Of a stretch of 64,000 nucleotides of DNA, positions 2,909 through 48,803 are shown in pieces. The notes under the pieces were generated by a model. That model was given only the letters and a program-made list of their open reading frames with translations, was not told the origin of the DNA and did not search any database. The translations under genes were made by a program, and so were the position numbers. Source of the DNA: Escherichia coli (lineage in GTDB: Bacteria > Pseudomonadota > Gammaproteobacteria > Enterobacterales > Enterobacteriaceae); assembly GCF_024223415.1 (NCBI RefSeq), contig NZ_CP100500.1. One strand, given 5' to 3'. How positions within the stretch are numbered: the first letter of the stretch is position 1; each line of letters starts with the position of its first letter.

Positions 2909-3435
2909 CAATGAACTGCACCCCAAATGTTGGACATAATCTGACATCTGAAGGTGCAGTTTATGAAACATTCATTTGAAGTAAAACTTGCCGCTGTAAA
3001 TCATTACCTGGCCGGTCATGCAGGCATCATTTCTACGGCAAAACTCTTTCAACTTTCTCACACCAGCCTCTCACACTGGATTAATCTTTTTCTTCTTCAC
3101 GGTCCTCAGGCACTGGATTGCAGACACAAGCGTAGCTATTCTCCTGAAGATAAACTTTGCGTGGTTCTTTATGCTCTCGGGCATTCTGAGTCTCTACCCC
3201 GGGTAGCTGCCCGGTTTAACATTCCCAGCCACAACATGGTTAAAAACTGGATAAAAGGCTACCGCAAATCTGGTAATGAGGCCTTTATCAGGCGCAGGAA
3301 GGAGAAAAGCATGACCCGTTCTGATGATACCCATGAAAACGAGGCAAACATGACGCCGGAAGAGATGAAGAATGAGCTGCGTTATCTTCGCGCAGAAAAT
3401 GCATATCTGAAAGCCATGCAGGAGCATCTCCTGGA

Positions 3436-3442
3436 AAAAAAG
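3436..3442 (+). other. programmed -1 ribosomal frameshift heptamer A AAA AAG
   Basis: A7G run in the orfA zero frame where the orfB reading frame opens; canonical IS3-family frameshift motif. Confidence 0.7.
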
Positions 3443-4343
<901 letters not shown>

Positions 4344-25560: not shown

Positions 25561-25608
25561 TTGACAGGAAAGTAATAACAGGCCAATATGTATATACATG
25601 ACGTATAT
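25561..25608 (+). promoter_or_regulatory. putative vapBC promoter and operator
   Basis: TTGACA at 25561..25566, 17-bp spacer, CAATAT at 25584..25589; perfect 12-bp palindrome ATGTATATACAT at 25588..25599 overlapping the -10 and putative start site; GTATAT repeated again at 25602..25608. Confidence 0.45.
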
Positions 25609-25626
25609 CCCAAAAAAGGGGGGGCT

Positions 25627-25854
25627 ATGGAAACTACTGTATTTTTAAGTAATCGCAGTCAGGCCGTCAGATTACCGAAAGCGGTCGCTCTGCCAGAGGA
25701 TGTTAAGAAAGTAGAAATTATTGCGATTGGTCGTACAAGAATCATCACTCCCGCCGGTGAGTCCTGGGACAGTTGGTTTGATGGCGAAAATGTGAGTGCG
25801 GATTTTATGGATATCCGTGATCAACCCGCAATGCAGGAAAGGGAATCATTCTGA
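25627..25854 (+). CDS. vapB: VapB-type antitoxin (AbrB/SpoVT fold)
   Basis: 75-aa product METTVFLSNRSQAVRLPKAVALPEDVKK... closely resembles VapB/MvpA antitoxins as I recall them; preceded by a G-rich RBS; stop overlaps the toxin start (TGATG). Confidence 0.8.
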   Translation: METTVFLSNRSQAVRLPKAVALPEDVKKVEIIAIGRTRIITPAGESWDSWFDGENVSADFMDIRDQPAMQERESF

Positions 25855-26252
25855 TGCTGAAATTCATGCTGGATACCAATATCTGTATTTTCACTATTAA
25901 GAATAAACCAGTACATGTCAGAGAGCGGTTTAACCTGAATTCTGGCCGGATGTGTATAAGTTCTGTAACATTGATGGAGCTTATCTATGGGGCAGAAAAA
26001 AGTCAGATGCCAGAACGCAATTTGGCGGTGATTGAAGGTTTCGTATCTCGTTTGGAAGTGCTTGATTATGATAGTGCTGCTGCGACGCATACTGGGCAAA
26101 TCAGGGCCGAGCTTGCCCGGCAGGGAAGGCCTGTTGGACCTTTTGACCAGATGATAGCGGGACATGCTCGCAGTCGCGGTTTGATTGTGGTTACCAACAA
26201 TACCCGAGAGTTTGAGCGAGTGGCGGGAATCAGACTAGAAGATTGGAGCTAA
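25854..26252 (+). CDS. vapC: VapC-type PIN-domain toxin (tRNA endonuclease family)
   Basis: 132-aa product MLKFMLDTNICIFTIK... with PIN-domain acidic residues; 1-nt overlap with vapB. Confidence 0.8.
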   Translation: MLKFMLDTNICIFTIKNKPVHVRERFNLNSGRMCISSVTLMELIYGAEKSQMPERNLAVIEGFVSRLEVLDYDSAAATHTGQIRAELARQGRPVGPFDQMIAGHARSRGLIVVTNNTREFERVAGIRLEDWS

Positions 26253-32300: not shown

Positions 32301-32360
32301 TTCCTGAGACAAAGTACAAACAGCAAGAACCCGCTGAGCAGGTTCTTAATCGGAAAGTTG

Positions 32361-32395
32361 AAAAAGGCGACACATTAGCATGTCGCCTTTTTTAT
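32361..32395. terminator. bidirectional hairpin terminator between ypfM and acrD
   Basis: A5-ggcgaca-loop-tgtcgcc-T7. Confidence 0.65.
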
Positions 32396-32398
32396 TGC

Positions 32399-35300
32399 TT
32401 ATTCCGGGCGCGGCTTCAGCGGGAAGCGGCGGCGCACCAGCACAAAGAACAGCGGCACGAAGTAAATAGCCAGAATAGTAGCTGAAATCATCCCGCCCAT
32501 TACGCCAGTACCCACCGCATGCTGACCACCGGAACCGGCACCCGTGCTGGTTGCCATTGGCAATACGCCGAAGATAAATGCCAGCGAGGTCATCAGAATC
32601 GGGCGTAAACGCTGACGGCAGGCGTGGAGCGTTGCTTCAAACAGGTCGTGGCCTTTTTGGTTCATCTCGTTAGCAAACTCGACGATCAGGATGGCGTTTT
32701 TCGCCGATAAACCAATGACCGTTAACAGGCCCACCTGGAAGTAAACGTCGTTTTCCAGCCCGCGCATCCAGGTTGCCAGCAGCGCGCCGATTACCCCCAG
32801 CGGCACGACCAGCATTACCGAGAACGGTACCGACCAGCTTTCATACAATGCAGCCAGACACAGGAATACCACCAGCAAGGAAATGGCGTACAGCGCCGGA
32901 GCCTGCGCGCCGGAAAGCCGCTCCTGATACGACATCGCCGTCCACTCCAGACCAAAGCCGTTTGGCAGCTGCTTCACTAACGATTCCATAATATCCATCG
33001 CCGTACCGGTACTGACCCCCGGTGCGGCTTCCCCAACAATTTCAACCGCAGAATAACCGTTATAGCGTTCCAGACGCGGCGAGCCTGTCTCCCAGCGTGA
33101 GGTCGCGAAAGCAGAGAAGGGCACCATGCCGCCATCTTTATTTCGGACATACCAGAGATTGATGTCATCTGGCAGCATGCGATACGGCGCAGCTGCCTGC
33201 ACATAGACTTTCTTCACGCGACCGCGATCCATAAAGTCATTCACATAGCTCGAACCCCAGGCGGTTTGCAGTGTGTCGTTAATATCGTCGATAGCAACGC
33301 CCAGCGCCTGAGCTTTACGCTGGTCGATATCAATCTGCAACTGCGGACTGTCGTCGAGGCCGTTATGGCGCACACGGGTTAGCTCCGGGTTTTCCGCCGC
33401 CAGCGCCAGCAACTGGTTACGTGCTGCCATCAGCGCATCGTGACCTGCTCCAGCGTGGTCCTGCAACTCCATATCAAAACCCGCAGAACTACCAAGACCG
33501 CTAATTGCTGGCGGGCTGCTGGCGATAACGCGAGCTTCTTTAATCTTGTTAAACGCCTTCGTTGCACGCTCGATAATGGCAAATGAGGTGCCGGTCTTAC
33601 TGTCGCGTTCGCTCCAGTCTTTCAGGCGGATAAACATTCGCGCCACGTTTTGCCCGTTACCCCCAGGGCCAGAACCAACAGTGGCAAACACCGACATGAT
33701 GTTGTCTTTTTCATGGGTGAAGTAATATTTCTCGATTTGCTCAACGACTTTCAGGGTCTGTTGTTGGGTTGAACCGCTGGGCAATTGTACCGAGGTAGTA
33801 AACATGCCACGGTCTTCCAGCGGTAAGAACGACGTCGGTAAACGCAGGAACAGGAACACCATGCCGCCAAGCAGCAGGACATAAATCACAATCCAGCGCA
33901 GGCTGCGGTGGAGAATTTTCGCCACCCCTTTTTCGTAGCGTTCGGCGTTGCGGTTAAACATCTGGTTAAACCAGGCAAAAAAGCCTTTTTGCCCGTGATG
34001 CTCACCTTTTTTCAGTGGCTTAAGTAGTGTGGCACACAGAGCCGGAGTGAGGATCATCGCTACCAGTACTGACAGCACCATCGCCGCAACAATGGTAATA
34101 GAGAACTGGCGATAGATGGCACCGGTGGTGCCGCCGAAGAAGGCCATTGGTACAAATACCGCCGAAAGCACCATCGCAATCCCGACCAGTGCCCCCTGGA
34201 TCTGCCCCATCGATTTACGTGTGGCTTCGCGAGGACTGAGTCCTTCCTCACTCATAATACGTTCGACGTTTTCCACCACCACGATGGCGTCATCCACCAG
34301 CAGACCGATCGCCAGCACCATCGCGAACATGGTTAAGGTGTTGACGCTGTAACCGAAGGCGTAAAGTACGGAGAAGGTTCCCATCAACACCACCGGCACG
34401 GCGATAGTGGGTATCAGCGTGGCGCGGAAGTTTTGCAGGAACAGATACATAACGAGGAAAACCAGAGCGATAGCTTCCAGCAGCGTTTTCACCACGTCTT
34501 CAATGGAGGCTTTAACAAACGAGGTGGTTTCATACGCCACCTTGTATTCCAGTCCATGCGGGAAATACTGCGCCAGCTCGTCGAGACGATTGAGCACCAG
34601 CTCCGCTGTCGCCATTTCGTTAGCGCCGGAGGCCAGTTTTACCCCCAGCCCGGAGGCTGGCTTACCATTGAAGCGGCTAAGATAATCGTATTTCTCCGCC
34701 CCCATTTCGACGGTGGCGACATCGCCCAGCCTTACCTCTGAGCCGTCCTGATTCACCCGCAAGGTGATATCGCGGAACTGTTCTGGTGTTTGCAGCAGTG
34801 ACTGGGCGTTAATGGTGGCGTTGAGCGCCTGCTTATCGACGGAAGGTGTACCACCAAGTTGCCCAACCGCAATCTGCGCGTTCTGTGACTCAATGGCATC
34901 AGTGACATCTTTAGCCGTCATCTGGAAACTGTTGAGTTTCGCCGGGTCCAGCCAGATACGCATGGAATATTGCGAACCATAGGCATCGATATCCCCGACG
35001 CCATTCACGCGGCTTAACGGGTCCTGAATATTACTGGCAACATAATCGGCAATATCCTGTTTATCCATCGAACCATCGGTAGAGACGAAAGCAATGGTCA
35101 GAATATTGGTATCGCCGGTTTTACGCACCGTCACGCCCTGATTTTGCACCGCCTGCGGTAACTTTCGCATGGCTGATTGCAGCTGGTTTTGTACTTGCTG
35201 CACGGCTTCGTCCGGATCGGTGCCTGCTTTAAAACTTAAAGTGACAGATGCCTGACCGGTGCCACTGCTCTGAGATGACATATACATGAGATTATCGAGG

Positions 35301-35512
35301 CCGGTCATATTTTGCTCGATAACCTGGGTCACGGTGTTTTCCAGCGTCTGGGCCGATGCGCCGGGATAGTTAGCGGTCACTCGCACATTCGGTGGCGCGA
35401 GATCGGGGTATTGTTCAACGGGCAATGAAAAAATCGCCAGGGTACCTGTCAGACACAACAGGATTGCCAGCACCCAGGCAAAAATGGGGCGATCAATAAA
35501 GAAATTCGCCAT
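32399..35512 (-). CDS. acrD: RND multidrug efflux pump (aminoglycoside efflux)
   Basis: 1037-aa RND transporter [22 protein letters not shown]... Confidence 0.9.
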
Positions 35513-35572
35513 TAAAAGAGGACCTCGTGTTTCTGCGTATCGTTGTAGGCTTGACTTGCTTCACTGTAGCGG

Positions 35573-35590
35573 CAAGGTACGAGCCAATCG
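35573..35590 (-). promoter_or_regulatory. putative BaeR-binding box upstream of acrD
   Basis: minus-strand sequence TTTTTCTCCACGATTGGC, one mismatch from the BaeR consensus TTTTTCTCCATDATTGGC as I recall it; about 60-80 bp upstream of the acrD start. Confidence 0.45.
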
Positions 35591-35675
35591 TGGAGAAAAA
35601 AAGGAGTTAATGTAAATTATCATGCCCTTTTATACTGAACCTTAAGTGCAAGTATTCTTTGGTCAGTAGGAGGCA

Positions 35676-37376
35676 TTACATTAACTGACTTTCCTCACCC
35701 TCCGCAGAGCGAAAGCTAATACTCACTAACGTGCCGCCGCCGGAAGGTTGTGAAAAAGTCAGCGTCCCACCCAGCCGTTCCGCGCGTTCGCGCATGATAT
35801 TCAGACCATAATGACCTTCGGGTTCTTTCGGTTCACCGATACCAATCCCGTTATCACGGATATAAACCGTGTGATTGCCGTCCGGCGCGGTGACGCAACT
35901 GACGGCGATTTCGCTGGCGTTGGCGTGCTTCATCGCATTCAGCACCGCTTCGCGAATAATTTGCAACAAATGCACCTGCATTTGCGCATCCAGTGCCAGG
36001 GTTGGCAGACGGCAGTCGAGGGTCAGTTTGGCGCTGGTTTGATTTTGTAACGTATCCAGCATTTCCCTCAACGCGGAGGGGAGATCCGCCTGCTGCAGCG
36101 TCAGGCGGAAAGTAGTCAACAGCTCGCGTAACTGCCGATAAGCATCATTCAACGCCTGGGAAAAATCGGCCATGATACTTTGTGCGGTGGCGTTATCTTC
36201 CGGTATCGAACGCTTAAGTAACGTCAACTGGATACGTAAGTAAGAAAGTACCTGAGCCAGCGAGTCGTGCAATTCGCGGGCGATGGTTGCACGTTCTTCC
36301 ATCAACAATAACTGCTGAAAATGCTTCTGCGCCTGATTAAAGTACAAACCGCGTCCCAGCATCGACGAAACGCTGTTAAGCAGCGGTTCTGATGATGAAA
36401 CGTGACTATTTTGCCAGTGCAGTTCGCCGTAAACCGTCTCTTGCATTGTCACCGGTAAAATCTGCATCGGCAATTCCGGGTTTGGTTGCCCTTCGCTAAT
36501 CCGCCAGTTTTCACCGACATTTAACTCCAGATATTCAGCCGCTTCATTGTCGCGAACAATCTGCAAAATATGGCGGAAACAATGCACATCAATCTGGCTA
36601 GTGTTCAGCGCCTGCGAACACTGATACAACACCTCCAGACGACGCTTGGCCTCGTGGAGATCGCGGGTCTTTTCTTCTACTGACGCTTCCAGCGAACGGT
36701 ACAATTTATGCAGCTCGCTCGACATCTGGTTAAAGGTTTTTGCAAGTAGACCAAGCTCATTCGGCAGACTGGTATCCAGCGGCGGCGAGTCGAACTGCCC
36801 GTGTTCAATACGCTGACTGGCGGTAACCAGCTGATTCAGCGGGGCAACCACCTGATGGCGTATGCGGCGCAAAGTAAAAAAGACCAGCGTGAAAATACCG
36901 ATGCCGCCAGCCAGGGAAATCGCCACCACCAGCAGCATTTTGCGTTCAGCGTAGTGCTGTAAAGCCAGCACGAACAGGTCTATCTGATTAACATAATTAT
37001 TAATATTGGCCTGATACCACGGCAAATCGCCCTTGCTGAGCCGATTATTCATCTCCAGCCAGTTGGCATTCAGATGCGCATAGCGAGTTTTTACTGCTTC
37101 TGGCACATACCAGACGTTGAGGTTGGTTAATACCGGTGAATGCAGTGCCTGCTGAAATAACTGGCGATGTGCATTGAGTTGTGGACTGCCACTTTGCAAG
37201 TCGTAGCCCAGGCGGTAACTCTGCATACGCAGCGATCCGGCAATATTGATAGCCTCAGCGTCGCGCAAACTGCTCGCCAGAGTTAGCAGAGCGATACCCG
37301 TGGAAAGAATCGACAGCAGCACAATGTAAAAAAAGGCCCGGGCCAGACTGGCCGAGACGGGTCGTTTAACAATCAC
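35676..37376 (-). CDS. narQ: nitrate/nitrite sensor histidine kinase
   Basis: ORF track 35676..37391; likely GTG start giving 566 aa; HAMP region, H-box ELHDSLAQ, ATPase domain. Confidence 0.85.
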   Translation of the reverse strand: MIVKRPVSASLARAFFYIVLLSILSTGIALLTLASSLRDAEAINIAGSLRMQSYRLGYDLQSGSPQLNAHRQLFQQALHSPVLTNLNVWYVPEAVKTRYAHLNANWLEMNNRLSKGDLPWYQANINNYVNQIDLFVLALQHYAERKMLLVVAISLAGGIGIFTLVFFTLRRIRHQVVAPLNQLVTASQRIEHGQFDSPPLDTSLPNELGLLAKTFNQMSSELHKLYRSLEASVEEKTRDLHEAKRRLEVLYQCSQALNTSQIDVHCFRHILQIVRDNEAAEYLELNVGENWRISEGQPNPELPMQILPVTMQETVYGELHWQNSHVSSSEPLLNSVSSMLGRGLYFNQAQKHFQQLLLMEERATIARELHDSLAQVLSYLRIQLTLLKRSIPEDNATAQSIMADFSQALNDAYRQLRELLTTFRLTLQQADLPSALREMLDTLQNQTSAKLTLDCRLPTLALDAQMQVHLLQIIREAVLNAMKHANASEIAVSCVTAPDGNHTVYIRDNGIGIGEPKEPEGHYGLNIMRERAERLGGTLTFSQPSGGGTLVSISFRSAEGEESQLM

Positions 37377-48127: not shown

Positions 48128-48803
48128 TATTCGTGAAGCACACGCGCGCGGCGAACAGGCAATGTCCGTGGTTCTGCGCGCCAGCATTATTACCCCGGAA
48201 GCCCGAGAAGTGGCGGATTTACTGGGTTTTACCATCACCGAATGTGATGAATCGATCCCGGTAACGGCGTCCGTGCCCGCCAGCGTGCCAGCCGATAAAA
48301 CCGAAAGCCAGCGCATCCGCGAAACCATCATTGCCCAGCTGCCGGAAGGCCAGTTTACCGAAAGCCTGGTCGCGCAGCTGATGGAAAAAGTGATGAAGGA
48401 AAAACAGTCGCTGGAGCAGGGTGCAATGCAGCCGAGCTTCAAATCGGTGACCGGCAAAGGCGGCATCAAAGTGATTGATGGCAGCAGCGTCAAGTTTGGT
48501 CGTTTCGACGGCGCAGAGCCGCATTGCGTGGGCTTGACTGATCTTGTGACCGGAGACGACGGCAGCAGCATGGCCGCCGGTTTTATGCAGTGGGAGAACG
48601 CATTCTTCCCGTGGACCCTGAACTACGACGAAATCGACATGGTGCTGGAAGGGGAGCTGCATGTTCGCCACGCAGGAGAAACCATGATCGCCAAAGCAGG
48701 CGACGTAATGTTTATCCCGAAAGGCTCCAGCATCGAATTTGGTACGACATCCAGCGTGAAATTCCTGTATGTCGCCTGGCCGGCTAACTGGCAATCCCTA
48801 TGA
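48102..48803 (+). CDS. eutQ: cupin-type Eut protein (acetate kinase activity reported)
   Basis: 233-aa ORF. Confidence 0.85.
   Translation: MKKLITANDIREAHARGEQAMSVVLRASIITPEAREVADLLGFTITECDESIPVTASVPASVPADKTESQRIRETIIAQLPEGQFTESLVAQLMEKVMKEKQSLEQGAMQPSFKSVTGKGGIKVIDGSSVKFGRFDGAEPHCVGLTDLVTGDDGSSMAAGFMQWENAFFPWTLNYDEIDMVLEGELHVRHAGETMIAKAGDVMFIPKGSSIEFGTTSSVKFLYVAWPANWQSL

Follow-up and report, generated by a model that had tools for sequence, protein, structure and literature searches.

Two questions are raised by the spacer between narQ and acrD, genes that follow each other on the same strand: whether it carries an operator through which the response regulator BaeR controls acrD, and whether it also accommodates the end of the narQ transcript. 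The DNA analysed here, referred to as the window, is one stretch of 64 kb, and the spacer is the 163-bp interval 35513..35675 named in the original prediction, an extent that agrees with the positions of the acrD reading frame and the narQ stop codon (Table 1). The AcrD protein scores 2266 bits against an NCBIfam equivalog cut-off of 1854, and NarQ 931 bits against a cut-off of 553. The window belongs to the E. coli chromosome: of 5426 complete E. coli genomes, 5424 are matched at 95% or more by a 401-bp query around the site, and the features annotated there are narQ and acrD. The spacer is 100% identical to positions 2587432..2587594 of K-12 MG1655, and thus the literature on K-12 applies to it base for base. 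With the covariance models of Rfam 15 at gathering score, the whole window gave no match. As a side observation, ypfJ and purC are separated at 25588..26252 (+) by the genes of a type II toxin-antitoxin pair, vapB/vapC (NCBIfam scores 113 bits for VapB and 291 for VapC); K-12 presumably has no such insert at this place, which would mean that the window is not K-12 despite its K-12-identical narQ-acrD spacer.

AcrD belongs to the RND pumps and expels aminoglycosides as well as some beta-lactams. The acrD site is a switch that ties envelope stress (indole, copper, zinc, tungstate, ethanol) to the expression of this drug pump, and is thus relevant to inducible drug tolerance. The BaeR operator of acrD is already known, and as the link between BaeR and acrD has been in the literature since 2005, its confirmation adds nothing new. 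The additions made here are modest: corrected coordinates, a footprint across genera of the consensus bases that are truly constrained, a probable -10 element, and a spacer in which no narQ terminator can be recognised.

Table 1. Features of the narQ-acrD region in window coordinates; conservation is the mean column conservation in an alignment of 67 distinct orthologous promoters
Feature	Position	Strand	Conservation	Remark
acrD open reading frame	32399..35512	(-)		
narQ-acrD spacer	35513..35675			163 bp; both flanking genes on (-)
acrD Shine-Dalgarno GAGGT	35522..35526	(-)		9 nt upstream of the ATG at 35512; read from the sequence
Candidate -10, GC-TACAGT	35563..35570 (hexamer 35563..35568)	(-)	0.95	conserved as GCTAnAGT at fixed spacing
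12-nt gap-free spacer after the 18-mer	35571..35582		0.62	
18-mer BaeR box TTTTTCTCCACGATTGGC	35583..35600	(-)	0.90	-88..-71 from the acrD ATG; K-12 MG1655 2587507..2587524
Core of the box	35585..35598		0.987	
Proximal half-site TCTCCACGA of the TCTNCANAA type	35588..35596	(-)		6/7 specified bases; offset +4 within the 18-mer
Long imperfect RNA hairpin	35592..35700	(-)		only candidate for a narQ terminator
Middle CTCC	35603..35606	(-)		11 bp upstream of the proximal-box CTCC; read from the sequence
Upstream block (G)ATAATTTACAyTA	35607..35620		0.946	
Distal BaeR-box-like element TTTACATTA	35608..35616	(-)		5/7 specified bases of TCTNCANAA, degenerate; 20 bp upstream of the proximal box
Published acrD CpxR site GTATAAAAGGGCATG	35621..35635	(-)	0.67	exact match to the site in PMC9600279 Table S1
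narQ-proximal half of the spacer	35627..35675		0.49	
narQ stop codon TAA	35678..35676	(-)		

The BaeR box and its probable repeats

The window has a single copy of the 18-mer TTTTTCTCCACGATTGGC, located on the acrD strand. The original prediction was right about this sequence, but had placed it at 35573..35590, which is 10 bases off; that range actually reads CGATTGGCTCGTACCTTG and shares only 8 bases with the box. The BaeR motif of Nishino 2005, in the form in which it is quoted in PMC3915751, PMC3799227 and PMC11644481, is TTTTTCTCCATDATTGGC, and the acrD box agrees with it at 17 of 18 positions, the sole difference being a T-to-C exchange at position 11. The predicted single mismatch to the consensus was therefore correct, and the motif score is not a poor one. 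On both strands of the 64 kb, the box is the only match to TTTTTCTCCATDATTGGC with up to three mismatches, while the analytic expectation from the base composition of the window is 2e-4 matches with at most one mismatch per 64 kb and, for the spacer alone, some 3e-7 to 6e-7; none of 100 shuffled sequences contained an exact copy of the box. To avoid circularity, a consensus TTTTTCTCCMTWATTGGC was also built from the K-12 boxes of mdtA and spy alone, and a search of the window with it again returned the acrD box as the sole match, with two mismatches. As the box agrees with the motif as well as with the mdtA and spy boxes, with which it has 15 of 18 positions in common in K-12, it looks like one of the sequences behind the published motif.

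A second BaeR box, TCTNCANAA, is ascribed to Yamamoto 2008 where it is quoted in PMC3799227. The half-site of this type inside the acrD 18-mer has the same offset as the corresponding half-sites in the mdtA and spy boxes, and would lie at -40..-32 from the predicted transcription start. Elements of this kind reportedly occur as direct repeats, and each of the three K-12 promoters has a distal TCTNCANAA-like box upstream of the proximal one, at 20 bp in acrD, 21 bp in mdtA and 22 bp in spy. The distal element of acrD is part of an invariant block ATTTACA and, judged by its sequence, may be a BaeR site rather than that of another factor. Between the two lies a further CTCC, kept as CT[C/T]CT in the orthologues, for which a role as an additional BaeR contact is possible; in mdtA, too, the proximal CTCC is preceded by another one, at a distance of 10 bp.

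Comparison with known BaeR targets

One close relative is the promoter of mdtABCD-baeSR, the box of which (TTTTTCTCCCTTATTGGC) is identical to that of acrD at 15 of 18 positions and differs in the three central bases (CTT instead of ACG). It is located near the start codon, at -71..-54, as is the acrD box, and the arrangement of proximal box, upstream CTCC and distal box is nearly the same, whereas the nearest -10-like hexamer appears to be 2-5 bp closer than in acrD. Both promoters are activated by BaeR, with an additional stimulation by CpxR that depends on BaeR (PMC2731931). The spy box TTTTTCTCCATAATTGGC is a perfect copy of the consensus from which the acrD box deviates at two positions, and the direct repeat TCTCCAT(C/A)A is found there with a distance of 22 bp. 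Like acrD, spy is co-regulated by CpxR, but its box is much farther from the gene (-156..-139 from the ATG), its CpxR site is downstream of the box and not upstream as in acrD, and its response to CpxR is independent of BaeR, unlike that of acrD (PMC2731931). In Erwinia amylovora, the same gene has a box TTCTTCACGATTACTGGC that shares the CACGATT core and to which BaeR binding has been shown by EMSA (PMC3915751), but that box has several mismatches, is positioned at -166..-148 from the start codon, and belongs to an organism outside the genera that keep the -88 geometry.

Conservation of the acrD promoter

In a NarQ-based scan of a single genome for each species, 80 loci were obtained, and in 68 of them acrD was found after narQ. 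These 68 loci cover about 16 genera, among them Escherichia, Salmonella, Citrobacter, Enterobacter, Lelliottia, Leclercia, Atlantibacter, Buttiauxella, Cedecea and Franconibacter. When the 300 bp preceding acrD were searched for the box, the best match fell at -86..-92 from the ATG in 67 of these 68 loci, and in all 67 the core TTTCTCCACG[A/T]TTG is invariant, whereas the best matches in control segments of 300 bp within narQ have 5-7 mismatches. The exception is Entomohabitans (locus L050), in which the box is at -294, an offset that possibly results from a mis-assigned start. CTCCACG is invariant in all orthologues, and the Shine-Dalgarno sequence of acrD is nearly so. The footprint obtained from the 67 promoters is not uniform over the 18-mer (Table 1). 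At its 3' end, ATTGGC is found only in Escherichia and other genera have TTTG[G/A/C][C/T], so that a part of the 18-mer consensus may not be contacted by BaeR at all.

About 20 species have a gene for NarP (378 vs 343 bits) inserted between narQ and acrD, and in these the conserved block keeps its distance from acrD. As the block stays with acrD across the insertion, it has to be assigned to acrD rather than to narQ. The pair narQ-narP is seen in Buttiauxella, Atlantibacter, Cedecea, Franconibacter and relatives (for example at 3248..3892 of locus L040; the other loci with narP in between are L030, L033, L042, L047, L051, L053, L058, L059, L066-L069, L072, L073, L075, L077 and L079-L081), whereas acrD directly follows narQ in Escherichia, Salmonella, Citrobacter and Enterobacter. 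In the loci of Pectobacterium, Serratia, Samsonia, Edaphovirga and Symbiopectobacterium there is no acrD within 1.5 kb after narQ, the loci that lack the linkage being L052, L055, L057, L060-L064, L070, L071, L074 and L078. The association of narQ with acrD is thus limited to core Enterobacteriaceae.

Proposed promoter architecture and mechanism

Downstream of the box, the 12-nt interval to the conserved GCTAnAGT is free of gaps in all 67 promoters although its sequence varies, and the TACAGT hexamer in the window retains the critical -10 positions T-12, A-11 and T-7. The proximal repeat is located at the would-be -35 position, 17-19 bp upstream of TACAGT; counted at 17 bp, this position is taken up by the 3' half of the box. 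A simple scan of 35350..35850 for the sigma-70 consensus, with -35 and -10 hexamers 16-18 bp apart, detected no promoter, and acrD has no -35 consensus, which is consistent with an activator-dependent promoter. Transcription of acrD is predicted to start near 35556.

From this we conclude, with a probability of about 0.88, that the box at 35583..35600 is the BaeR operator of the acrD promoter and the same site that has been described for K-12. This conclusion is drawn from the motif match, its uniqueness in the window, the conservation and the fixed geometry, together with the binding and expression data of the literature. The sensor kinase BaeS activates BaeR, a regulator of the OmpR/PhoB family, upon envelope stress caused by indole, metals (copper, zinc), tungstate or ethanol, and in the mechanism that we propose phosphorylated BaeR would then bind head-to-tail to direct repeats that probably extend over about 35616..35583. 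There may be three repeat units, namely the distal TTTACATTA, the middle CTCC, and the proximal TCTCCACGA inside the 18-mer, and BaeR would thereby occupy approximately -60..-30 relative to the start near 35556. As the would-be -35 region is filled by the proximal repeat and no -35 consensus is present, it is most likely that BaeR recruits the polymerase, and the sigma-70 enzyme may be recruited in the same way as by PhoB at pho boxes, which would switch acrD on. CpxR may bind a weak site just upstream (35635..35621) and would only boost the effect of BaeR. PhoB belongs to the same OmpR/PhoB family as BaeR, depends on phosphorylation and activates in a class II-type manner, and pho boxes are tandem direct repeats with a period of about 10-11 bp that replace the -35 element upstream of a recognisable -10 element. 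The acrD operator has a different repeat sequence and a different regulator, and the likeness to pho boxes would be mechanistic only.

The same footprint could be read in such a way that the operator is not the 18-mer but a 34-bp element of three units (ATTTACAyTA / CTCCT / TTCTCCACG-TTTG), which is invariant in about 16 genera. The ATTGGC end would then be an accident specific to Escherichia, the distal ATTTACA might belong to a second regulator, and narQ might have no intrinsic terminator and be read into the operator. Taken as a whole we regard this as unlikely.

The end of narQ

The original prediction also held that the interval must contain the narQ terminator, and this part is not supported: neither a canonical terminator nor, among the listed positions, a Term-seq 3' end was found, and the sole candidate hairpin shows no covariation. 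A terminator pattern scan of 35350..35850 on both strands found none. What can be found is a long imperfect RNA hairpin (35700..35592) with a minimum free energy of -30.8 kcal/mol and a z-score of -3.3. Its 5' arm is the 3' coding end of narQ (GAGGAAAG, TTAATGTAA), which pairs with TTTACATTAA as well as with the run of T in the BaeR box, and its 3' arm consists of the conserved ATTTACATTAA and the same T-run.

It may be argued that this hairpin and the T-run of the box double as an intrinsic terminator of narQ, in which case the interval would serve both genes. The fold is stable and adjoins a run of seven T, and narQ must end somehow. Against such a double function speak an AT-rich outer stem and a U-run that takes part in the pairing, as well as a comparison of six Escherichia sequences, in which none of the 35 base pairs covaries, several pairs are disrupted and the covariation term comes out unfavourable. 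The half of the spacer next to narQ is not conserved across genera (0.49), and the 3' arm is kept also in genera in which narQ ends differently, as expected if it is under promoter constraint. In the spacers of Salmonella and Citrobacter, the terminator scan gave no terminator on the gene strand, only opposite-strand or intragenic matches, and among the Term-seq 3' ends listed by Adams et al. 2021 none is labelled narQ and none falls at K-12 2,587,3xx-2,587,5xx, although the listing may be incomplete and narQ is weakly expressed. The hairpin, which lacks covariation and conservation and does not fit the terminator pattern, was rejected as the narQ terminator; it is probably fortuitous, and we consider a terminator function of the box quite improbable. 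Rho-dependent termination or some read-through into acrD is possible.

Two further observations concern termination in this region. In Salmonella (L018, L025) and Citrobacter (L012-L027), a G+C-rich inverted repeat (for example GCGCCGGAAGGCC...GGCTTTCCGGCGT) that is not present in Escherichia adjoins the end of narQ, some 150-190 bp before acrD. On the gene strand it lacks a T-tract, and it may represent an atypical terminator or a REP-like element. Directly past the acrD stop codon, between the convergent genes acrD and ypfM, the window has a strong terminator at 32359..32394, with an A-run, a hairpin with a 14-bp stem, and a T-run. Adams 2021 lists a matching Term-seq 3' end at K-12 2590726 (-); the terminator of the window differs from that of K-12 by one base in the loop and is probably bidirectional.

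The CpxR site

Table S1 of PMC9600279 credits the 15-mer GTATAAAAGGGCATG to Hirakawa et al. 2005. With a position weight matrix built from the other 40 published CpxR sites, it scores 5.95 bits, which is lower than 38 of these 40 sites, and 151 positions in the window score at least as high; compared with the tandem pentamers GTAAA-N5-GTAAA, spaced by 10 bp, it has four mismatches. Such a weak sequence is in keeping with an action of CpxR on acrD solely via BaeR, as reported in PMC2731931. No tandem CpxR box was found to overlap the conserved ATTTACA block in scans with the consensus and the matrix. The published site and the conserved TTTAC together form an inverted pair GTATA...N14...TTTAC (window 35621..35616 and 35635..35612, (-)), and CATGATAATTTACA is conserved well past the published 15-mer, which suggests that the real contact may be shifted from the annotated site. 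The highest matrix score in the window, 16.3 bits, belongs to a perfect CpxR consensus GTAAAACCCAGTAAA at 48218..48232 (-), which falls inside the coding sequence of eutQ in the ethanolamine-utilisation operon (L083 7569..7583).

Evidence for direct control by BaeR

The control of acrD by BaeSR and envelope stress, which had been part of the original prediction, is borne out by the motif match, the sites in the literature, RNA-seq data and the invariant core alike. In E. coli, four BaeR sites have been reported, that of acrD among them, and the effect of CpxR on acrD was found to be strictly dependent on BaeR (PMC2731931). Direct regulation of acrD by phosphorylated BaeR is stated in the summary of Hirakawa 2005 given in PMC10052836, and a fusion of the acrD promoter to lux responded to indole via BaeS/BaeR (PMC4780735). 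In a baeR knockout, the RNA-seq log2 change of acrD was -0.20 without stimulation and -2.91 (p = 2e-39) in 5% ethanol, and in a cpxR knockout in ethanol it was -1.88 (PMC7657598 supplement). The Erwinia acrD promoter, which has a similar box, is bound by BaeR (PMC3915751).

Dissent comes from a ChIP-exo study of E. coli in 5% ethanol, in which mdtA and spy gave BaeR peaks but none was detected upstream of acrD, and the authors therefore call the regulation indirect (PMC7657598). The conserved block would then be a real element of the acrD promoter that is not bound by BaeR in vivo but by another regulator of the OmpR family or beyond (CpxR, OmpR, EvgA), and the absence of a peak despite BaeR-dependent expression is in line with this. 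The reverse complement of TTTAC is the CpxR half-site GTAAA, which also points in that direction, and so does the invariant TTTACATT, which we take to resemble OmpR-type half-sites. However, the acrD box shares 15 of its 18 bases with both undisputed direct BaeR targets, binding of BaeR to acrD in vitro has been reported for E. coli as well as for Erwinia, the block contains no tandem CpxR box, and the CpxR matrix does not exceed 7 bits anywhere in the interval. As the ChIP-exo report covers a single condition and 21 peaks, its negative result is given less weight here than the in vitro binding and the sequence evidence, and an indirect action of BaeR is held to be highly improbable. That the 18-mer is a functionless chance resemblance in a T-rich region of low complexity is effectively refuted, as it is unique in the window where 2e-4 such matches are expected, is not reproduced in 100 shuffles, and has a core that stays invariant at a fixed place in 67 of 68 loci while its flanks vary.
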